A stretch of 64,000 nt of DNA, from the NCBI GenBank assembly GCA_039208735.1, contig JBCCQY010000027.1, positions 10,915-74,914 of the forward strand, given 5' to 3'. This DNA is from Myxococcota bacterium (GTDB lineage Bacteria > Myxococcota_A > UBA796 > GCA-2862545). Below, one piece after another: positions 1-16,062 of this stretch. Each line of letters opens with the position of its first letter. Positions within the stretch are counted from its first letter, which is position 1. The notes below the pieces were generated by a model, which saw nothing but the letters and a program-made list of their open reading frames with translations, had not been told where the DNA came from and ran no database searches. The position numbers and the translations under genes are program-made.

Positions 1-533
1 CGGCCGATGGACTCGACGAACGGCTCATCCGCGACCATGAGCCGATCGTGGATGGGGCCCACGGCTCCGTCGTATAGCGCAAAGTCGAGTTGCCCCGATG
101 CGACGAACGGCGCGAGTTCGGGGTGGGCGCGCCACCAGGGCAGGTTCTGGTCGGAAAAGTCGGTCATCACGTAGCGAAACGGACGCGTAGGTTCGCCATA
201 GGCCTCTGCGAACTCAAGCAGATGGGTCAGAACGAGAAACGCGAACCGACCCGTACCCGACCCCAGTTCGACGATGTGGACAGGACCTTCGCCCTCGTGG
301 GCCACCGTTTCCACATACTGGAACATGATGCGCGCATAAGCCCTGGCTAAACCGGCGTTCGACGTGATGTAGGATGGAATCCCATGCGTCAACCACGCAC
401 CGACGCCTTCGGCAGCGTAGAACCGTTGATTCAGTGACCAAATCTTCGATTCAGAAAGTCGAACCGGTGGTTCGATACGTCGTCGATCCGGCAGGTCCAC
501 CAACAGGGGGTTGTTGAACCTTGGTTCATCCAT
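1..533 (-). CDS. SAM-dependent methyltransferase, MidA/NDUFAF7-like (partial, runs off window start)
   Basis: Not in ORF track; manual translation from ATG at 533: MDEPRF...SESKIWSLNQRFYAAEGVGAW...IPSYITSNAGLARAYA...HIVELGSGTGRFAF...RYVMTDFS. ExGxGxG SAM motif; start overlaps the stop of the upstream gene. Confidence 0.75.
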   Translation of the reverse strand, partial: MDEPRFNNPLLVDLPDRRRIEPPVRLSESKIWSLNQRFYAAEGVGAWLTHGIPSYITSNAGLARAYARIMFQYVETVAHEGEGPVHIVELGSGTGRFAFLVLTHLLEFAEAYGEPTRPFRYVMTDFSDQNLPWWRAHPELAPFVASGQLDFALYDGAVGPIHDRLMVADEPFVESIG

Positions 534-1056
534 CGGGGTCTTCGCGGCTCGACGTTCGGCGAGCCTCGTCAACGGCGGCCCGGATTCCTCGACCGAGGTC
601 TTCAAAGGCCGCCTTCAGGTCACCGGCGGGCTCGGCTGCACGCTCCCGCCATTGGTCGGTGATCCAACGCACGGACCGTCCGAGCCCCCTCATGAGCGCC
701 TCACGGTCGTTGGCCATTTGCTCGGGAGGCTCGCCGAACACCTCTTCGGGGCTGGGGGGAGGTTTTCGAGGCGCGGTGTCCGTGTCCTGGTACTCGGGGA
801 GGTTTGCGATGGATTCGTCGCGAACGCCGGCGACGAAGCGTCGAGCCACGGCTCCGGCGGCGTTTAGGCCTTCTTGGACTCGCTGCTCGATCCAGACCTG
901 CGCCACGGACGCATCGACTTCGAACGGCACCAACGACTCAAGATCGACGCGATGAAGGCCACCCCCCCACTGTGCCACCTCGACGGGGCCAAGGATCAGG
1001 TCCTTGACGTTGTCGACGATGAACCACCGGCTTCGATCCCTGGTGTGAAGCAGCAT
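526..1056 (-). CDS. hypothetical protein, paralog of the N-terminal domain of 1107..2063
   Basis: From ATG 1056: MLLLHTRDRSRWFIVD...VDLESLVPFEVD...PEEVFG aligns with MILFHTEDRHRWFLVD...VDLEFLAPFEVD...PEEVFG of the neighbour. Confidence 0.7.
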   Translation of the reverse strand: MLLHTRDRSRWFIVDNVKDLILGPVEVAQWGGGLHRVDLESLVPFEVDASVAQVWIEQRVQEGLNAAGAVARRFVAGVRDESIANLPEYQDTDTAPRKPPPSPEEVFGEPPEQMANDREALMRGLGRSVRWITDQWRERAAEPAGDLKAAFEDLGRGIRAAVDEARRTSSREDPDG

Positions 1057-1106
1057 AAGCGGCGCATGTCTAAGGCGTTGTTTGAGTGGCGTCGAGGAGA
1101 CACCTG

Positions 1107-2063
1107 TCACTTCGGTAGAGCACCGTCGCCGGGCGTCGAATCGAAGGGAGGGCGCTGTAGACCGGTGACGTCGATGTCGCCAAGGTCCCATCCCCGGGCC
1201 GCGAGATGACCGAGGAATACAGGGGGTAACGCTACGTTGTAGCGCTCGAGGTAGCCCGGCAGGTCGTCTGGCCAGCAATACAGACCGTCGGTACGGACCG
1301 AAGCCGTTCCGATCGCCTCCGCAGACGATTCGAGAACGTCGGCCACCGGTTCGGTCGAAGCCTCGAGCAGCGGCGCTTGTCGAAGGTACGCCACGATCTG
1401 CGGTTGGTGGGCGAGGGGCAGGAACCGACGGGACTCGACCAGGGAGGGTCCTTCGGGATCGCCGTGGGGGAGTTCCCGAAAAAACCCGACTGGCAGGAGC
1501 TGTGGCGGTTTGGTTTCCGCCGGCTCGGCGGCTCGTCGCGCTAATGCCTCGGCAAAGCGCTTGTCCGCATGTTCACGAACCGCCCGAAGACCTTGGGACA
1601 ACGACTTCAGCAAGTCGCCGGGGTCGGACCGCGACCCGTTGGGTTCAGCGTCGTCGGGCTGCAGCCGAGCGGTAAGCCACTCGAAGGCTTGGCCCACCCC
1701 CTTTCGGAGCTGTTCAGGGTCCCGATACATTTCGCTTGGGCGAACCCCGAAGACCTCTTCTGGGGTCACCGTGGGCCCCTTAGCGACCTCCCGCAGCTCG
1801 GCTGAATCGTTGCGCGTCGCTTTTCTTAGGTGCTTCGAAAACCTCCGAAACGCCTGGCCAGCCTTTCGGAAGCCCCTTCGAATGCGATCGTCGATCCAGG
1901 CTTGACCTGCCGCTTCGTCTACCTCAAACGGGGCTAGGAACTCAAGGTCGACCTCCATCGGCGTTCCTCCGTAACGAACGACGGCGAACGAGCCGGAAGG
2001 AAGCGCTAGGTCTTCGTCAACGAGGAACCATCGATGCCGGTCCTCGGTGTGGAACAGGATCAT
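1107..2063 (-). CDS. two-domain hypothetical protein; C-terminal GFFREL...TDG..WP.DL..Y domain (possible immunity-like)
   Basis: 318-aa ORF; N-half duplicated in next gene; C-half GFFRELPHGDPEGPSL...IVAYLR...DVL...TDGLYCWPDDLPGYLERYNVALP. Confidence 0.7.
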   Translation of the reverse strand: MILFHTEDRHRWFLVDEDLALPSGSFAVVRYGGTPMEVDLEFLAPFEVDEAAGQAWIDDRIRRGFRKAGQAFRRFSKHLRKATRNDSAELREVAKGPTVTPEEVFGVRPSEMYRDPEQLRKGVGQAFEWLTARLQPDDAEPNGSRSDPGDLLKSLSQGLRAVREHADKRFAEALARRAAEPAETKPPQLLPVGFFRELPHGDPEGPSLVESRRFLPLAHQPQIVAYLRQAPLLEASTEPVADVLESSAEAIGTASVRTDGLYCWPDDLPGYLERYNVALPPVFLGHLAARGWDLGDIDVTGLQRPPFDSTPGDGALPK

Positions 2064-2182
2064 CTGGCTGGCCCCTCGCCCCGACTATCACGGCGCCGTA
2101 GGGTTCAGGCGCCAAGCAATCTTTGCATTATTGACATCCACGTGCCAGTCGGTGAATGCTGCCTCCCATTGGAAGGGTCGCG

Positions 2183-5100
2183 ATGCCGTCAGACGACGTG
2201 AAGTCCAGTTCCCGGAATCGCGCAGAGAGCCATCGGTCCTCGCCCAAGCGCCCGTCTCGCACCGAGGGTGTCGATGCGGTCGCTGTGCCGAGCCTCGAAA
2301 CACCGATACGCTCTACCCCCGCTGACGTTGGTAATCGCGTATTCAGCGAAGCGATTGCCGGCGGGCTCGAAGGATTTGGTGAGGTTGTCGCCGGAGAGAC
2401 GCTGTACGGAGCCCTGGGGTTGTCCTCCTCTCCGGAGCGGTCGAACACTGCGATGAACACGAGGTTGTCGGGCCAGGTAATGCGGCGCGCATCGCGTATG
2501 GCACCGAGAACCCCGACCACCTCGCTCGCCCAGCTCCTGGCCTCGAGCCGCGGGTTCCCCATTCCTCCGGCCGTTGCGAGCCGAATGTCGGGTGCGCTCG
2601 GGGTCGACGTCTCGGATGTGGTCTTGCACACCGACGCCTCTGCGGCGGCGGCGGCCCAGTCCATTGGCGCCCTTGCGTTCACCCTTAGGCGCCACATCTT
2701 CTTTGATGCGGGGCGCTATGCCCCTGGCACCGATGCCGGGGACGAGCTGTTGCTGCACGAACTGGTGCACGCCGACCAGTACGCCCGAGGCCTGCTTGAT
2801 TCCGCTTCTGGCGATGGCTTTACGGTGTCCCAACCCACCGACTGGGCCGAGGTCGAAGCCACCCAGGTGAGCCAGACCGCCATGAGCCAGCTCGGCGCCA
2901 TGGGCAGCCCGCACACCGCGATCGACCATGGTCTTGTCGGTGTCGACCCCGTCCCTGCGGAGTCGACGATTCACACCGACGGTCAGCTGATGGGAATGTT
3001 CGGCTGGGTTGGGGGCATCGTCGAGAGCGGACTCCTTGCGGCGGTTCGGGCCCTGTCGCCAGGGTTCGCCGGAATTCTTGAGAATGGGATCGGGCCGCTG
3101 GTGAGCGACCTGTTCCGCGAGGCGCTCAACGTCTTTTTGTCCAAGGTGCTCAATCCATTCGACATCCAAGGGAGATTCGCCGAAGTCAACGCGGAGATTC
3201 ACGCCTTCTTTGGCACCATACAGGGTGTTCTCGAAGGGGAGCCCGGGTGTTGCGAGACGTTCCAGAATTGGCTCGACACCGTGCAGGGGTTCATGGCGGA
3301 CCTGTCCCAGGAACCGGTCGTGCGTTCGCTGCTCGATATGGTCGAAGGGTTCGGGGGCGTCGTGGACATGTTCCGCGAGTTTCTCGGTGGCGCCCCTGGT
3401 TTCTTTGACGAACTCCTCGCAGAAGCGAGCGACGAATGGAACGACCTGCTGCGTTTGGTCAACATCGGGCGCAACATCGCGGGTTGGATTTGGGAGGGCA
3501 TCTGCGGCCTGATCGGCATTGATCCCGACCAGGGCAGCATCGTGGATTGGCTCATCAGCGAAGTGCGGTCCTGGTTCTCGAGTTCCATGGATGACGAGGG
3601 GCCAAGCCTCTTCAGTCGCGTGATGTCCTTCGGGTCGACGGTCATCAACATGACGCCGATCGGGTCTCTGCTCGACATCTTCGGAGCGCTGAAGGGGGTG
3701 TGGGACGGGGCGCAGTTCCTTTGGAACAACTGGAATTCCCCCACCCTCATCGAAGATGCGTCGGCCACGAGCCCGGCCCTCGGCATCTTCGCGGAGGGCC
3801 TGAAGGACGCCGCCGCCTCGGCGGATGAGTTCGGCGCTTGGGTATCGGACTATTTCCCGACGGCCCTCGCGAACATCAACGAGTCACTCAACGGGCTCGG
3901 CGATGGGTGGCTTGCGTACGGAGCGAAGCTGCTCCTCACCCCGATGCTCGTGCCCCTACAGCTCGGAACCGACTTCGCCATCTGGTACGCGCAAGGCGGA
4001 GACGGGGTCATGGCCAAGTGGGCCGCCGACGCTTGGGAGCACATCGAACCCTTCACGGAGGTTCTCGGCTTCCTGGTCATGCTGGCCGCCTCTGCGACGA
4101 CGGGGATCGGCATGATCCCCGTGATTTTCGCCGGCGTGTGGCGGCTGTTGCCCGACTGTCAGAAGCCGGCCATGCTCGACTTCATTTTGGATGTCCTGAC
4201 CGGCGCTGTCGGCTTGCTGGGCAGCATTCCTCTCGTCGATTTGCTGGCCACGGGGTTGATCGGGTTGTTGGAGGCCATTCGGGGCCAATCCGACGAAGAC
4301 AAGGTGTTGATCACGAACAACCTGGCCAAGATCCTGACCGGTAGCCCGCAGTTCATCGTCGGTCTGGTGTCGGGGCTCGGCGTGGGCATGTTCGATGGGG
4401 TCAAGGACACCGTCTCGATGCTGTGGATGGTGCTTGACGGCGTGATGACCCTCGTAAGCGGGGCCGCATCGCTGCTCGATACGGTGCGGGACTACGAGGC
4501 AGCGGACGTCGGCGCGGACACGGGCGCCGAGGCGGCAGAAGAACTCGTCCCTACTCCCGACCTCACCGAATACCTGACGAATCTCGGTGAACGGGTGCGG
4601 CCGCCGATCGCGTCGATCGGGCAAGACTTTACGCCGGCATTCCAGGCGATTTTCGGAGGGGGTGACGAGGCTCAGGTCACCTCGATTGAGGGACTCGCGG
4701 AGCGCATGGGGTCGATGTGGCAGTCGGCCAAAGAGGCGGTTGCCCAAGGCGGTACGCTGATCGGGCAGAAACTGTGCGAAATGCTCGTTGCGCCGGATGT
4801 GGGGTACCAGGTTGGGTATGTGGCTGGCTACGTAGGGGGCGTGCTCGCGGTCGAGGCCTTGATCGCCTTCCTCACGGCGGGTGCCTTTGTGGCCCTGAAG
4901 GCCATTGGCGGTGCGCTGGTCCGATTTGGAACGAATGCGTTCAAGGCGTTCAAGGCATTTGGCAAGCTGGTGCTCGAGCGGCTGATGCCGATGTTGCAGC
5001 GAATCGGAAGCTCCCCACCGATGCGTCGCCTCATGGGTTCGCTGCGCGAGCTTGCCGACCGGTTGATTCGGGCGTCGGACGACCTCATGGACATCGTGAT

Positions 5101-7453
5101 GCGAGGCCGGCGACGAGGGCGTGCCGCCTCGGCCCCCGCCCCGCGTCCCCGCACCACCCCTGGGGCCTCCACGCCTCGCACGGCGGGCGCGGCAAAGCGA
5201 GGCACACGAGGTCAGAAGCGGCGCGATCGCGACCGTGACGAGGGGCCGGTCGCCCTGCGGAGCAAGGCCCAGACAGCCTCCACCCGAGCCTGGCGAAAGG
5301 CTCGCAAGCGCACGGGCAAACGTTTGGTCCGTCGGGCCGCGCTCGAGAGCATCGTCAAGAAGCTCGGCGGCGTTCGCGGAGGGGTGAGGTTGCGGCTCGA
5401 GGTGGTTGAGGTCCGCAGCCGGTGGCACGTCAAGGCCACGGCCAGCCGAGGGACGAAGCGAGCCATCGCCACCGCTGGCCTTGGCTGGATCGCCCGGAGC
5501 CAGTCGGGCGAACGGTGGTATTGCGCCGACGACATGGGGCCGTTCAACGAAGCCCTCATCGACAGCACTTTCGCTCAGCTCCGCCGCTCGGATTCGGACG
5601 GGCAGGATGACTCGTTGCGCGCGGCCTACAACGAAAAGGTCAAGGAGGCCAAACGGCTCGAACGAAAGGGCCAACGCCGGCTCGATCAGAAGGTTCGTGG
5701 CCTCGAGATGGACATCAAGATGGAGCCGTTTTCCGGTGTTGAGCGCGACAAGAAGATTCGAACCAAGATTCGCATCGCGCCCAACACGACCGAAGAAGAT
5801 GCCGATGTGGAACTCAACCTCCACAAATTCTGGAAGCGGTTTAAGATCAAGACCCCTACGTCAAGGTCCAAGGTTTTCGAGGCCAAGAGCAAGGGACTAC
5901 GCCGCGAGGAGAACTTCCCGAGCCTCGGTACGCCTCCCATGCTCGGCAAAGGCGAAACCTTGCCGGCCTTCGTCGTCAACACGGCGACGACGCCTGGGGA
6001 AGTCGAAGGAAACATGGCGAGCCGGTATTTCGGTCCGGCGTGGTCCGGGGCGGGGCAGGACTACGAGGAAGCCGCTATCTTCCGCACCGCCGTCGTCGTG
6101 GGGGTGAACAAGTTCGTCGCCATCAGTGAAGACACGACGCGGGAGCGGGTCGAAGAAGTCAACCAAGCGATCTCAAAGATCAATACCAACACGAACTGGA
6201 CGTATTCGTTCTTCGGGTTTCTTTGGGAGCCCCATTGGTACGAGAAGGGCTCGAAGCGCAGAGTCGCATACATCCGCCAGGAGTATAAGAAGGCCTACAA
6301 CGCGGCAGATGCGAAGGAACGAGGTGAACTCGAAGACGGAAGGAAGGCCCGGGAGAAGGTCAGTGCCAAGACGCTGCCGTACGGTGATTTCCGCAATACC
6401 GTGATGGAGTCGAAGCCCACCAAGAAGGCGGTAAACCGGCTGTCTCAACACTACGATCCGGTGCATGCGTTGCTTCAGGATGCCGACAGCCGCATTCAGG
6501 CCCAGTCGGGAAGTGGCGTGCTTGCCGCTTACGACGACATCTTGAAGAAAATGGATCGGCACCCGCTCGTCACCATCGGCATGTACCGCGTCAAGGGGTT
6601 TGATTGGAGTAAGAAGGGCGACCCTCACCGCCTTCAGCTCACCAAGCTTGGCAACCAACTCGACCAGGCCATTCGCAAAGCGATCGCCAAGATCGCCCCT
6701 GAGATTCTGTACCCAACCGAGCCGAACTCGCTCGTGAAGTTGACGGACAAGACGCACGGTGACGGCGTTCTCGACCGTAAGCCTTTGCAGAAGGATCTGT
6801 TTGGGCACCGCGAGACGGAAGGACAGGTCGCCGGGCGCAACATCCGAGCCGAGAACCGAGTACATTCCAACGTCCACCCTGATCCGGTCGCGTACCGGCC
6901 TGACGCCAGCATCGAGCAGGACACGAAACCCGGCCTGCCCGACGAGCGGGGCTTGACCGTGAGTCAGGAGCAGGTGTGGGCCGCTTCGGAGGGGAAGCTG
7001 AAGCGCGGAGATCGCCTGTTGCCCATGGAGCCAGCCGACCGCAAACATCCCCTGACGGCGATCACCACTCAGTCGCAGACCTACGCTGACCCTCGCGGTC
7101 TCACGCGCGAAACCTGGAAGGCGGATCTGCCACCGGCGGATGCCGACGAGGATGCCGAAAAACAAGATCTGCGGGAGATCTACGACCAGGTCGAGCGGTT
7201 GTGCCGTGTCCTGGTGGACAGTCCGAGCATTGAAAAAGCGGCGGGCGAGGTCGAGCGAATCGAGGAGCAGGTGCGCGCGTCCGTCGCGAAGTTGACCGGC
7301 CAATATGCCTCGAATCAACGGATGGCTGGACTGATCCGACTTGCCGGCGACGTCGTCCAGAGTATCATCACGTCGCTCACGGCACCGGAACTCCAGCAGC
7401 TGTGGGATGATCTTCGAAAGACGCTCGACGACGTCATGGCCGCGAAGCCCTGA
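2183..7453 (+). CDS. DUF4157 (eCIS core) domain polymorphic-toxin-like protein with uncharacterised C-terminal domain
   Basis: N-terminal GFPIPPAVASRMSGALGVDVSDVVLHTD...ALAFT...IFF...DELLLHELVHADQ (HExxH DUF4157 signature); long hydrophobic helical middle; R/K-rich linker; globular C-terminus. ATG 2183 chosen; ORF open from 2156. Confidence 0.85.
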   Translation: MPSDDVKSSSRNRAESHRSSPKRPSRTEGVDAVAVPSLETPIRSTPADVGNRVFSEAIAGGLEGFGEVVAGETLYGALGLSSSPERSNTAMNTRLSGQVMRRASRMAPRTPTTSLAQLLASSRGFPIPPAVASRMSGALGVDVSDVVLHTDASAAAAAQSIGALAFTLRRHIFFDAGRYAPGTDAGDELLLHELVHADQYARGLLDSASGDGFTVSQPTDWAEVEATQVSQTAMSQLGAMGSPHTAIDHGLVGVDPVPAESTIHTDGQLMGMFGWVGGIVESGLLAAVRALSPGFAGILENGIGPLVSDLFREALNVFLSKVLNPFDIQGRFAEVNAEIHAFFGTIQGVLEGEPGCCETFQNWLDTVQGFMADLSQEPVVRSLLDMVEGFGGVVDMFREFLGGAPGFFDELLAEASDEWNDLLRLVNIGRNIAGWIWEGICGLIGIDPDQGSIVDWLISEVRSWFSSSMDDEGPSLFSRVMSFGSTVINMTPIGSLLDIFGALKGVWDGAQFLWNNWNSPTLIEDASATSPALGIFAEGLKDAAASADEFGAWVSDYFPTALANINESLNGLGDGWLAYGAKLLLTPMLVPLQLGTDFAIWYAQGGDGVMAKWAADAWEHIEPFTEVLGFLVMLAASATTGIGMIPVIFAGVWRLLPDCQKPAMLDFILDVLTGAVGLLGSIPLVDLLATGLIGLLEAIRGQSDEDKVLITNNLAKILTGSPQFIVGLVSGLGVGMFDGVKDTVSMLWMVLDGVMTLVSGAASLLDTVRDYEAADVGADTGAEAAEELVPTPDLTEYLTNLGERVRPPIASIGQDFTPAFQAIFGGGDEAQVTSIEGLAERMGSMWQSAKEAVAQGGTLIGQKLCEMLVAPDVGYQVGYVAGYVGGVLAVEALIAFLTAGAFVALKAIGGALVRFGTNAFKAFKAFGKLVLERLMPMLQRIGSSPPMRRLMGSLRELADRLIRASDDLMDIVMRGRRRGRAASAPAPRPRTTPGASTPRTAGAAKRGTRGQKRRDRDRDEGPVALRSKAQTASTRAWRKARKRTGKRLVRRAALESIVKKLGGVRGGVRLRLEVVEVRSRWHVKATASRGTKRAIATAGLGWIARSQSGERWYCADDMGPFNEALIDSTFAQLRRSDSDGQDDSLRAAYNEKVKEAKRLERKGQRRLDQKVRGLEMDIKMEPFSGVERDKKIRTKIRIAPNTTEEDADVELNLHKFWKRFKIKTPTSRSKVFEAKSKGLRREENFPSLGTPPMLGKGETLPAFVVNTATTPGEVEGNMASRYFGPAWSGAGQDYEEAAIFRTAVVVGVNKFVAISEDTTRERVEEVNQAISKINTNTNWTYSFFGFLWEPHWYEKGSKRRVAYIRQEYKKAYNAADAKERGELEDGRKAREKVSAKTLPYGDFRNTVMESKPTKKAVNRLSQHYDPVHALLQDADSRIQAQSGSGVLAAYDDILKKMDRHPLVTIGMYRVKGFDWSKKGDPHRLQLTKLGNQLDQAIRKAIAKIAPEILYPTEPNSLVKLTDKTHGDGVLDRKPLQKDLFGHRETEGQVAGRNIRAENRVHSNVHPDPVAYRPDASIEQDTKPGLPDERGLTVSQEQVWAASEGKLKRGDRLLPMEPADRKHPLTAITTQSQTYADPRGLTRETWKADLPPADADEDAEKQDLREIYDQVERLCRVLVDSPSIEKAAGEVERIEEQVRASVAKLTGQYASNQRMAGLIRLAGDVVQSIITSLTAPELQQLWDDLRKTLDDVMAAKP

Positions 7454-7470
7454 CCCCGCGTCGGTAGCCC

Positions 7471-8112
7471 ATGGTGAGGCGCATGAGTGAAGAAGAACTC
7501 GCACAACGCGTGGCATCGACAGACCGCCACGACTTTGACGCCATGGTGGAGCTTGTCGAGGCCCTCGCCAAGGCGGGGCGAAGCCGACGGCAAGCGCTCG
7601 ATGAAGCGTATGGAGCCACGTTCCCCGACGAATTCTTCGCCATCGCCAAGGCCCGAACCCGCGACCGAGCGCCGCGCGGTCGTTATTCGAACCTGCCGTG
7701 GCAGCTCGTTGCGGACGCCCCCAGGCACGACGCTACGTTTCCCCAGGGCCTCGAGGATGCAGCACGGAGCGTCGACCCTGACCTGATCCCGCTGCTGATG
7801 ATTGGGGGCATCGACTACGTGTATGGGGGGAGCTTGCTCTGCTATCGCCTCGACGAGCTTCGCGACGGGCGATCCACCCTGTTCGGATTCCACTACAAGT
7901 CCATTCCCCCGTACTCGGAGGCGACCAAGTACGGCGAATCACTCATTGCGGTGCTGCTCGACCATTGCCGCGACGAGTACGGGGGGCTGGAGAGCGAGAT
8001 CGATGTCCCTTACCGACGGGCGGCGGGTGCGGCGGACGCCTCCGATCTCGAGCGGTCCCACGACCGACTCGCACGCGTTGAAGCCATCTATCGGTCGTTG
8101 ACCCGTTCGTAG
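7471..8112 (+). CDS. hypothetical protein, candidate cognate immunity protein
   Basis: 213 aa, 17 bp after toxin-like gene; YGATFPDEFF...PW...DPDLIPLL...GG..LCYRLDEL...GESLIAVL pattern loosely recalls SUKH/DUF2228-type proteins. Confidence 0.6.
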   Translation: MVRRMSEEELAQRVASTDRHDFDAMVELVEALAKAGRSRRQALDEAYGATFPDEFFAIAKARTRDRAPRGRYSNLPWQLVADAPRHDATFPQGLEDAARSVDPDLIPLLMIGGIDYVYGGSLLCYRLDELRDGRSTLFGFHYKSIPPYSEATKYGESLIAVLLDHCRDEYGGLESEIDVPYRRAAGAADASDLERSHDRLARVEAIYRSLTRS

Positions 8113-8153
8113 GAAGCCGCGGCGGGTGCCGTTATTCGCTACGGATCTTCAAG

Positions 8154-8663
8154 TCACCGCAGATAGAGATTTAGCGTCAAGCCTGACGTGAACGTGCCGA
8201 GGGCAGGGCTCCGTCCGGTGCCGCGGATCAGGTCGACGGCAAGGCCCACGTGACCGGCAATCGAGAGTTCGTCGATCAACCAGACCTCACCACCGAGCCC
8301 TCCCGCTACGCGGAGCCGGCCGTCGAACCCGGCTGCTTCGTTGTCGGAAATCGCCAAGCGCGCCTCTCCGAGGACAAAGGGCGCGACCCGTCCGTCTTCG
8401 TTCAGGTACACTCGCACCGCCGGAACCAACGCCAGATCGAGGGGTTGGTCATCTTCCGGGTCGAGTCCAAATCCTACATTGATCCCTAGATTCACGCGGT
8501 CACTGACCATCCCCCAAACCCCAGCCGCAGCGTCGAGGGTGTCGTTTCCTCCACCTGGCAGTCCAAATGACAAAGACAGGTCTCCCGCTGAAGGGCGGTC
8601 TTGATCGGCCGCTGCGGCGGGAACGGACCATAGTAGGGCGATTAGACAAGCGAGTCGCGTCAC
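8154..8663 (-). CDS. outer membrane beta-barrel protein
   Basis: GTG 8663 with GGAG RBS; signal peptide ...VPAAAA; alternating amphipathic strands; ends GLTLNLYLR. Confidence 0.7.
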   Translation of the reverse strand: MTRLACLIALLWSVPAAAADQDRPSAGDLSLSFGLPGGGNDTLDAAAGVWGMVSDRVNLGINVGFGLDPEDDQPLDLALVPAVRVYLNEDGRVAPFVLGEARLAISDNEAAGFDGRLRVAGGLGGEVWLIDELSIAGHVGLAVDLIRGTGRSPALGTFTSGLTLNLYLR

Positions 8664-14505: not shown

Positions 14506-14557
14506 ATCCGCTTACCATTCGCTTACCGCAACAACGGGTTGGATTGGCAAGGTCGCA

Positions 14558-14902
14558 CTAGTGCGGCTGATCGGAAGTTCGTTTCCAGGTTTCGGCCGCC
14601 TGAGCCGGGAACTCCCACGTGAACCGAAGGGATTCAAGGAGTTCCTTTGCAACGACGTCGGGAATGCCGCGAACGCCAGTGTAGGCCCAGCTCTTCTTGT
14701 CGCGGACCTGTAGGTCCATGACGTTGAAGGCGCCAGAGCCGTTGGCAAAGCGCAGCAGGGGCGTCCACTCGTCGTCCTCCTCGAGGCCCAACGTGCAGGT
14801 CTTTCCCCGAGGGCGCGCACGGAGCCAACGTCGAGCCAATTCGGACTCTTCGTGGAGGAGCCGGAGGACCTTCTCACCGAAGTATCGAGCTTCGTTTGCC
14901 AT
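14558..14902 (-). CDS. IS-borne accessory/passenger protein (114 aa), unknown function
   Basis: GGAG RBS directly after the native transposase stop; its TAG stop coincides with the IS end. Confidence 0.6.
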   Translation of the reverse strand: MANEARYFGEKVLRLLHEESELARRWLRARPRGKTCTLGLEEDDEWTPLLRFANGSGAFNVMDLQVRDKKSWAYTGVRGIPDVVAKELLESLRFTWEFPAQAAETWKRTSDQPH

Positions 14903-16062
14903 GGTGCGCGCTCCCTATGCGGCCAGGCGGGGATTGTACGTCCACGACAGGGCTTCGCGTGGCGTGCCCCGTAGTCGTCGAGCGACGCGTACAGGTGGTC
15001 GTCGAGCTCGACGAGCGCGCCGTAGCGACGGCCCGCGAGATAGCGCGTCGTGAAGCGAGAGAAGAAGTTCTCCGCAAGATTCAGCCAAGAGGCGTGGGTC
15101 GGAGTGTAGTAGACCCGGAACCGCGCACCGGCCTCGCTTCCCAGGAACGCCCCCATCTCTCGCGAAATGTGCGTCGAGCCGTTGTCCCAGACCAGGTGGA
15201 TCCGACGCATGGCAGGAAGCGCCTGGGCTACGGTCTCGAGCATCGCGATGGCCTCCGTCGTCGCGAAGCCCCGGCTCGGGAAGACCTCGGCGGCAACCAC
15301 CTCCCCGGTGTCGGGCCGGATGGCCGCCACCAGGTTGCGGGTGCCGTGGCGGATGTAGTTGTGCTCAACCCGTCGCACCTTGCCCGGCGCGGTCGGTCGC
15401 CCGGGGTAGGGCGAGCCAAGGGCCTGGATGTTCGTCTTCTCGTCGAAGCAGACCACCACTTCGTCCGCGGGAAGGTCTCGCATGTACAGGTCGCAGATGG
15501 CGTCGCGACGTGGGATGTAGTCGGGCCGGTCCGTAGGCGTGAACAGGTAGTAGCGCTCTCTGTGCGGTTGAACCTCGGCCGTCGCCAGGATGCGCTGCAC
15601 CGTGGAGCGGCTCATCACCGTGCCCTGAAGTGCAGCCAGCTCGACGATCAGCGTTTGAGTCATCCGCACGTCGCGACGGTCGTGTTGGTCCGGCTGTTGG
15701 CAACCGAGGCTGATGACCACAGCCTCGTCACGAGCGGTTCGTCGCCGAGGACGGCCCGTGCGCTGGGCATCGCGAAGCGCCTTCAGACCAGGACTGTCCC
15801 GAAAGCGCGACGCCCATTTGCGAACCGTCGGCCGGCTGACGCCGCACCGCCGAGCCGTCTCGCTCACCGACATCCCCATGAAGACGTGCCGCAGCACGAT
15901 CTCCGCTCGTTGCACGCTGCGATGCTCTGCGCGCCCTTGGCGCATCACCGCTTCCAGCTCGGCTCGCCGAGAACCCCCATCCACGACTGCTCCTCCATCT
16001 ACGGAGGAGCCTGATCACTCAGCAGGCCGATGGTGGCAACGAACTATCGGGCACGCTCACTA
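14559..16062 (-). mobile_element. IS630-family insertion sequence (~1.5 kb) with TA target duplication
   Basis: Both ends in CTAG (14558-14561, 16060-16063); imperfect TIRs TGGAAACGAACTTCCGATCAGCCGCACTAG (revcomp of left end) vs TGGCAACGAACTATCGGGCACGCTCACTAG (22/30); encloses an IS630 transposase. Confidence 0.9.
14915..15984 (-). pseudogene. IS630 family transposase, frameshift near C-terminus
   Basis: HTH (SETARRCGVSRPTVRKW), DEK, DNGSTH, YTPTHASWLNLAE; shifting frame at AAGCCC-TG (~14950) restores the typical KPxSWTYNPRLAA* end (TAG 14915-14917). Confidence 0.85.

Follow-up and report, generated by a model that had tools for sequence, protein, structure and literature searches.

Introduction

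The DUF4157 toxins of extracellular contractile injection systems (eCISs) were defined in Geller 2021 (PMC8213781) and Danov 2024 (PMC11297309). In the parts of these papers covered here, most toxin C-termini are unannotated (983 of 1130 DUF4157 proteins in PMC11297309), immunity genes are uncommon, and a position beside the eCIS operon is typical, at 88%, without being defining. The stem 'glycosyl' occurs 0 times in the main text of Geller 2021, and the covered parts of Danov 2024 name no glycosyltransferase toxin. Here we describe a DUF4157 protein and the small partner gene downstream of it, both encoded in a 64,000-nucleotide stretch of DNA (hereafter the window) from a Myxococcota bacterium (assembly GCA_039208735.1, contig JBCCQY010000027.1, positions 10,915 to 74,914 of the forward strand).

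Glycosyltransferases have been linked to such delivery before. A Tox-Glycosyltransferase situated behind a PVC-metallopeptidase in Actinobacteria was predicted in 2012 and, in the covered part of that work, is TcdB-related, corresponds to PF04488, carries a YxDxD motif and has no immunity gene listed (PMC3482391). Afp18 of Yersinia ruckeri is a tested eCIS-delivered glycosyltransferase that acts on RhoA (PMC4518317, in part), and the GT-A effectors of Legionella are summarised in PMC11696984; in the covered portions of these two sources, glycosyltransferase toxins modify eukaryotic proteins. The covered part of a study of actinobacterial particle effectors does not contain 'glycosyl' (PMC13277306). 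On the immunity side, SUKH proteins are described in the sections covered as versatile toxin-binding immunity proteins (PMC3113570, PMC3482391).

Like the described DUF4157 toxins, the window's protein combines an N-terminal DUF4157 domain bearing an HExxH motif with a very long linker and a C-terminus of the variable kind, and eCIS genes are present in its genome. Unlike 88% of those in the covered part of PMC11297309, its gene lies away from eCIS operons, and it has a dedicated partner, which most tested toxins of this kind did not. An earlier note on this DNA had read the pair as a toxin with a GT-A-like glycosyltransferase C-terminus followed by a candidate immunity gene. Systems of this type have been described; neither the toxin domain nor the partner family appears to have been. 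We found no account of the toxin-domain family or of an HPF1-like bacterial immunity protein, nor any glycosylating toxin, among those tested, that is paired with a bacterial immunity gene of its own, in literature whose coverage excluded supplements, which may list members, and most subscription papers.

A predicted GT-A fold at the toxin C-terminus

DUF4157/eCIS_core is the sole Pfam match over cut-off in the 1756-residue protein (PF13699, residues 126-203, E 2.9e-23, 82 bits against a cut-off of 22), and an NCBIfam scan of the whole protein gave no match. The C-terminal domain matches nothing in either database, and sequence searches of the PDB with it returned nothing meaningful. We modelled residues 1236-1756 with AlphaFold2 using 98 family sequences, which gave a predicted local distance difference test score (pLDDT) of 93.3 and a predicted template modelling score (pTM) of 0.92. 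All 25 Foldseek matches at E <=0.001 are glycosyltransferases, among them hyaluronan synthases, chitin synthases and a mannosyltransferase. The best VIA-align match is Xenopus HAS1 (Z 14.8, root-mean-square deviation (rmsd) 2.9, 232 aligned residues), and in a wide search of 48,161 solved chains the best 50 are again all glycosyltransferases (HAS1, Z 14.6; PcManGT, 14.1; BcsA, 13.2; TarS, 13.0; SpsA, 12.7). From the model and these three comparisons, the domain almost certainly adopts a GT-A fold, as the earlier note had guessed. That note had seen no nuclease, deaminase or ADP-ribosyltransferase motif here, and we rejected these enzyme types because the predicted fold is GT-A. A Tox-REase-7 assignment from the Atlas feature search (0.80-0.81) fell below the 0.9 lead level and is contradicted by the fold.

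The closest folds are those of GT2-type enzymes (hyaluronan, cellulose and chitin synthases, TarS/TarP, SpsA, PcManGT and AvpGT; Z 11-15 over about 190-250 aligned residues), with which the domain shares a DxD directly after a strand. It differs from them in having 5-13% identity and no membrane channel, and in being fused to a toxin carrier; because identity is this low, we call the domain GT2-like by fold and not a member of GT2. A GT2 profile match by sequence was also lacking, as no Pfam glycosyltransferase family, PF04488 included, was found in the query or in 107 scanned homologues.

In the model, strand 192-197 leads into D198-x-D200 (model numbering), which bears out the claim of a DxD following a strand. 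N1309 sits close to where a core strand ends, while PYGxxR and E1546 each begin a helix, the latter spanning model residues 311-325. The GT2 layout comprises a nucleotide-binding residue, a donor helix, a metal-binding DxD and a base on the finger helix. The order N1309, PYGxxR, DxD, E1546 in the model is consistent with this layout, and from GT2 topology we take E1546 to be the candidate catalytic base. These individual roles are provisional, since the structure comparisons gave aligned ranges and not residue-level superpositions.

Compared with the Tox-Glycosyltransferase of PMC3482391, the window's domain likewise follows a PVC-metallopeptidase and is a predicted DxD glycosyltransferase toxin; it differs from what the covered part of that work describes in its lack of a PF04488 match, its GT2-like fold and its conserved partner. 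The YxDxD motif is also absent, as the window reads HALLQDAD, with H or Y five residues before the D in the rows shown. Judged by motif and profile, the domain is therefore different from the TcdB-like family of 2012. Afp18, PaTox, Lgt1-3, SetA and TcdA/B resemble it as GT-A DxD toxins, with Afp18 also delivered by an eCIS (PMC4518317, in part). In contrast to the window's toxin, which matches no solved chain by sequence and has an immunity-like neighbour, they modify eukaryotic proteins and form a sequence-related set. Entries for TcdB, PaTox, Lgt1, SetA and SseK are absent from the best 50 of the fold lists, though lists of this length could have missed them.

Conserved residues and the domain family

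An exhaustive HMMER search with residues 1214-1756 (E <=0.001) matched 128 cluster representatives, the query included. In the resulting 128-row alignment, D1433 and D1435 are invariant in the 117 rows having a residue there (117/117), and N1309 (111/111), Y1468 (118/118), E1513 (117/118) and E1546 (117/119) are near-invariant or better. More broadly, N1309, W1348, P1399, R1404, Y1468, D1494, R1498, Y1510, E1513, E1546 and Q1632 stand at 93-100%. Because these positions hold across homologues, the motifs pointed out earlier (PYGDFRN at nucleotide 6377, QDAD at 6476 and YPTEPN at 6710, each found where it had been placed) are real and not chance.

We scanned 107 distinct homologues with Pfam (37 plus 71, one being in both sets). 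DUF4157 occurs in 24, and 12 carry ankyrin, OTU or RickCE matches, some of them under the curated cut-off. A FastTree phylogeny was built from 131 of 151 rows, after dropping rows that filled <60% of the core, and 20 of the 39 genome loci described below entered it. The forms that bear a four-helix tail, as the window's does, fall almost entirely into one 38-row clade (37 of 39, window included; support 0.99). Eleven of the 12 ankyrin/deubiquitinase forms group in a 19-row clade without DUF4157 (support 0.94), the twelfth sitting on a long branch, and the window's protein falls outside this clade. The 19-row clade retains the motif residues and, from its fused ankyrin and deubiquitinase domains, looks eukaryote-directed.

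Fusions of the glycosyltransferase domain to ankyrin repeats, OTU or RickCE were seen in P0070, P0073, P0075, P0083, P0091, P0093, P0096, P0118, P0124, P0125 and P0133, one homologue of this kind also giving a weak SNAD1 match; these forms apparently constitute an unannotated effector family. Searches of plasmids and phages returned two weak Streptomyces plasmid matches to a distant member and otherwise nothing.

A conserved partner with a predicted immunity-type fold

The earlier note had drawn attention to a 213-residue gene 17 bp downstream, and the gap between the toxin stop and the partner open reading frame (ORF) is indeed 17 nucleotides. Translation probably begins at the second ATG of this ORF, since homologues and database records begin there. 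Neither Pfam nor NCBIfam returned a match for the partner, and a PDB sequence search with it gave nothing meaningful. Its AlphaFold2 model (pLDDT 91.1) was compared by VIA-align with the Foldseek matches and aligned to residues 35-200 of HPF1 with Z 10.7 and rmsd 3.3 over 144 residues. Alignments to the SMI1/KNR4 protein 3d5p (Z 7.2, rmsd 3.4, 102 aligned) and to YobK (Z 5.8, background 3.8) lie below the Z 8 caution level, and an Atlas search lists SUKH clusters at TM 0.39-0.45 by query, under the structure naming bar. The model makes a SUKH/HPF1-like fold very likely, and by sequence the partner would be at best a divergent SUKH family. It resembles SUKH (SMI1/KNR4) proteins in aligning to 3d5p and YobK and in directly following a toxin gene, and differs from them in lacking a Pfam SUKH match, in its extra N- and C-terminal helices and in being paired with a glycosyltransferase and not a nuclease. 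The partner's model resembles the N-terminal domain of HPF1 (DUF2228) and lacks the C-terminal PARP-binding part, the alignment stopping at HPF1 residue 200-202, which is where the partner ends. Tyr238 and Arg239 of HPF1, required for PARP-1 binding according to the covered part of PMC4858568, lie outside the matched region, and an HPF1-like catalytic cofactor role is disfavoured for this reason.

The fold and the toxin-adjacent position fit an immunity protein, and the order of a toxin followed by a small gene of SUKH fold is an immunity pattern in the covered part of PMC3113570. We consider it likely that the partner confers immunity by binding the toxin, in keeping with the earlier suggestion of a candidate immunity gene, which the conserved adjacency and modelled fold strengthen. 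Partner proteins are acidic, with a median net charge of -14, and no hydrophobic segment occurs in the window's copy. Many actinobacterial counterparts of the toxin domain are basic; the net charge of the window's own domain is only -1, and an argument for binding from complementary charge was dropped.

Adjacency was assessed in 39 related genome loci, mostly from Streptomyces, with some from other actinobacteria, two Myxococcales metagenome-assembled genomes and a few Pseudomonadota and Bacteroidota. A partner homologue is present in 34 of the 39, a count that is partly circular because the partner profile was built from 31 of those loci plus the window's gene. All 34 have the helical tail, the five tail-less loci have no partner, and the partner start often overlaps the toxin stop. 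Among 20 metagenome loci, 14 have both tail and partner, three have the core with neither (one of them ending at the locus edge) and three have no core match, so that the partner occurs in 14 of the 17 with a core. The 401 genomes of the actinobacterial genus of one locus (L022) include six with the partner, and the same six, one being the centre genome, have a close toxin adjacent; three more have a distant toxin form without it. This count rests on the best 7 and 2 candidates of each genome, so weak orphans could be missed. Given such conserved adjacency we rejected a chance or unrelated neighbour, and among the loci examined the four-helix tail is found only in partner-bearing forms.

Several loci elaborate on this arrangement. 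Two toxin-partner pairs stand in tandem in L050, and in L048 one gene lies between toxin and partner. The L048 toxin (165-8435, plus strand) continues past the glycosyltransferase domain and tail for about 640 residues with a second uncharacterised domain, and two genes follow it, the second being the partner, as if there were one immunity gene per domain. In two loci from Myxococcales the genes after the partner belong to one family (L021:12345-14168 and L048:10199-11881), of which the L021 member is a glycosyl hydrolase of family 20. A glycosyl hydrolase beside a sugar-adding toxin could hint at an N-acetylhexosamine (HexNAc) donor or at repair, or could be chance synteny. In two metagenome copies (L087, L088) the toxin tail or partner is split across frames or stops, through assembly error or decay.

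Carrier architecture, probable delivery and genome context

Features of the pair are collected in Table 1. The DUF4157 domain and its HELVH (residues 192-196) coincide with the region of about 2550-2780 named earlier. The leader, which is hydrophilic, is a possible loading signal. The long hydrophobic region that had been claimed is also present, its grand average of hydropathy (GRAVY) being +0.41, with four 19-residue peaks of Kyte-Doolittle value >=1.6, and is likely the translocation or tube-filling part. What had been called an R/K-rich linker does contain 26-27% K+R; 5 of the 39 loci, however, conserve part of it, beginning at about residue 1011-1037. The sequence after it is soluble. The proposed C-terminal domain of about 500 residues is present, with its start nearer 1215-1240 than the suggested 1260 and its last 100 or so residues forming the separate helical tail. 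Third-position guanine-plus-cytosine content is similar in carrier (0.79), toxin domain (0.77) and partner (0.76).

Table 1. Features of the toxin-partner pair in the window; residues are numbered from the ATG at 2183
Feature	Position	Strand	Evidence
Predicted DUF4157 polymorphic toxin gene, 1756 aa (1765 aa from an alternative in-frame ATG upstream, at 2156)	2183..7453	+	intact ORF, Pfam match
Hydrophilic N-terminal leader, residues 1-125	2183..2557	+	GRAVY -0.47; eCIS signal peptides in PMC11297309 (part covered)
DUF4157/eCIS_core domain with HExxH (HELVH at 2756)	2558..2791	+	PF13699 match
Hydrophobic carrier, residues 246-975	2918..5107	+	hydropathy; common to relatives' DUF4157 proteins ending in other domains
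K/R-rich region, residues 976-1235, partly conserved pre-toxin segment	5108..5887	+	composition, locus comparison
Predicted GT-A (GT2-like) glycosyltransferase domain, residues 1236-1655	5888..7147	+	alignment, AlphaFold2 model, structure comparisons
DxD motif D1433-A-D1435, directly after predicted beta strand	6479..6487	+	alignment, model
E1546, first residue of helix, candidate catalytic base	6818..6820	+	117/119 rows; helix at model residues 311-325
Predicted four-helix C-terminal tail, residues 1656-1756	7148..7450	+	model; locus comparison
Conserved partner gene of 213 aa (209 aa from the probable start at 7483), candidate immunity protein	7471..8112	+	adjacency, fold

The source genome (9.4 Mb in 288 contigs, 92.7% complete, 6.2% contaminated) contains six matches to DUF4157, four to tube, five to sheath and four to baseplate-J. 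The earlier note had found no eCIS structural genes in the window and proposed delivery in trans. Injection genes indeed lie elsewhere in the genome, which makes this route plausible: among 33 selected ORFs scanned, contigs C12, C55 and C63 show clusters with Pvc16_N, an AAA ATPase and tube plus sheath and/or baseplate genes, some of which may belong to another organism given the contamination. The type VI secretion components TssC and TssF were not found in this 92.7% complete genome, and we rejected delivery by that system. An eCIS-type AAA ATPase homologue, about 40% identical to the source genome's own, occurs in 26 of the 39 related loci, which suggests that these sit at the end of eCIS operons (sheath and tube genes were not sought there). 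Two Streptomyces toxins that were scanned have no DUF4157. Taken together, eCIS delivery of the window's toxin is likely.

The glycosyltransferase domain was found in 0 of 40 relatives. Two of them (L073 and L074) have the carrier, in both cases within a DUF4157 protein that ends in an unrelated domain, and one of these proteins aligns with the window's protein up to residue 1212. The same carrier joined to other C-termini is the pattern of a polymorphic toxin, and the large protein is very likely a toxin. The C-termini of the two relatives' proteins (L073:4459-10086 and L074:1482-6554, both minus strand) have no Pfam match at E 1e-5 and are candidate further toxins. Within the source genome, contigs C12, C55, C63 and C143 (L059-L065) hold no fewer than three different contractile-injection clusters together with another five DUF4157 proteins, one of which has a GIY-YIG match; C63 also holds a Hint-domain protein.

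Around the pair, a perfect TTGACA hexamer lies at window positions 2131-2136 (plus strand), about 50 nucleotides before the toxin start; the promoter scan gave no plus-strand promoter matching it. Two tandem ORFs upstream on the opposite strand (526-2063, minus) share a similar motif by eye (HTxDRxRWF.V), and the 318-residue ORF of this pair has no Pfam match. An IS630-type transposase (DDE_3 with a helix-turn-helix) is encoded at 14512-15984 (minus), about 6.4 kb downstream of the pair.

Proposed mechanism and alternatives

On balance, we favour a model in which an eCIS injects the toxin into rival bacteria, an essential macromolecule of their cytoplasm is glycosylated, and the partner blocks the toxin at home. 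One of the contractile injection particles encoded elsewhere in the genome would take up the toxin in trans and deliver it into these rivals, where the GT-A domain would transfer a sugar from a nucleoside diphosphate (NDP)-sugar onto its acceptor; in the producer, the downstream partner would bind and block it. That the domain is an active transferase is very probable, and a bacterial target is fairly probable. The least secure part of the model is the acceptor. Since the ankyrin- and deubiquitinase-fused homologues retain the motif residues, it may be a macromolecule conserved between bacteria and eukaryotes, for example a gene-expression protein or a nucleic acid, a suggestion we hold with evenly divided expectation.

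Several observations weigh against this model. A common fold by itself shows no function, and identity to the structurally matched glycosyltransferases is the 5-13% given above. The eukaryote-directed look of the 19-row clade makes the target kingdom uncertain. The gene lies outside an injection operon, with no tube, sheath or baseplate-J match on its contig. Foldseek matches to the partner are weak (the top nine, all HPF1, have E 0.06-0.2), and Pfam SUKH profiles matched 0 of 37 partner members. Tail and partner coincide within a single clade (37 of 38 rows), so their co-occurrence reflects a single evolutionary event and is no proof that the tail is the binding site. Partner-less forms, finally, exist in 5 of the 39 genome loci, in two well-flanked metagenome loci and in 3 of the 401 genomes; as several of them carry DUF4157, the domain does not always need this partner.

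The partner could still provide immunity if the domain instead drained or polymerised an NDP-sugar pool such as UDP-N-acetylglucosamine (UDP-GlcNAc), or glycosylated a small molecule or lipid carrier. The nearest folds are, after all, GT2 enzymes of the processive or cell-wall kind (hyaluronan, cellulose and chitin synthases, TarS/TarP), a mannosyltransferase, and AvpGT, whose structure contains the nucleoside Ara-A; a metabolite target would also be common to bacteria and eukaryotes. This is unlikely in view of a model without a membrane channel, a charged and hydrophilic tail, and the protein substrates of known toxin glycosyltransferases in the covered portions of PMC11696984 and PMC4518317. 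Somewhat less likely again is an effector aimed at protists or fungi, its partner serving as a loading chaperone or a co-injected cofactor, as HPF1 does for PARP. The 12 of 107 homologues with ankyrin, OTU or RickCE domains, 11 of them in a clade lacking DUF4157, would suit this, as would the action of Afp18 on RhoA (PMC4518317, in part) and HPF1 as the partner's best structural match; yet the window's protein does not belong to that clade, the match covers only HPF1 35-200 and excludes Tyr238/Arg239 (PMC4858568, in part), and the gene order, coupled stop and start and SUKH-like fold make up an immunity pattern (PMC3113570, in part).

An effector acting inside its producer, in programmed death or development as has been reported of intracellular Streptomyces particles, with the partner setting a threshold, has a slim chance of being correct. 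Most named close homologues are actinobacterial and adjoin an eCIS-type AAA ATPase, and in the covered part of PMC13277306 an intracellular particle carries tape-measure-like effectors, of which one has an immunity gene. However, the distribution is sporadic (0 of 40 relatives; 6 of 401 genomes), which, like the swapping of C-termini, fits inter-strain conflict, and the window's genome has several particle types. The lack of a sequence match to any glycosyltransferase family might also mean a non-toxic or inactive glycosyltransferase-like binding domain; this is very improbable, because about ten motif residues are nearly invariant across homologues of 20-40% identity and the domain stands where a toxin would and is accompanied by a partner of its own.

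Implications

If the model of an eCIS-injected glycosyltransferase toxin is true, interbacterial conflict would gain a further killing chemistry from a GT2-like toxin family that has its own partner, a seldom-seen way of poisoning rival bacteria by attaching sugar, and some of the many DUF4157 proteins whose C-termini are unannotated would receive a function. More tentatively, and with some doubt on our part, the toxin may be the founding member of a class of antibacterial glycosyltransferase toxins derived from GT2-type biosynthetic enzymes, its acceptor being so conserved that ankyrin and deubiquitinase effectors reused the active site against eukaryotes. Its neutraliser would be a new SUKH-like family, the closest look-alike in bacteria of the HPF1 N-terminal domain, which would hint that HPF1 itself descends from an immunity protein that bound a transferase. 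Small, soluble and with clear catalytic candidates, the pair lends itself directly to testing, and the identity of the acceptor may uncover a modification not seen before on a molecule that is universally conserved.

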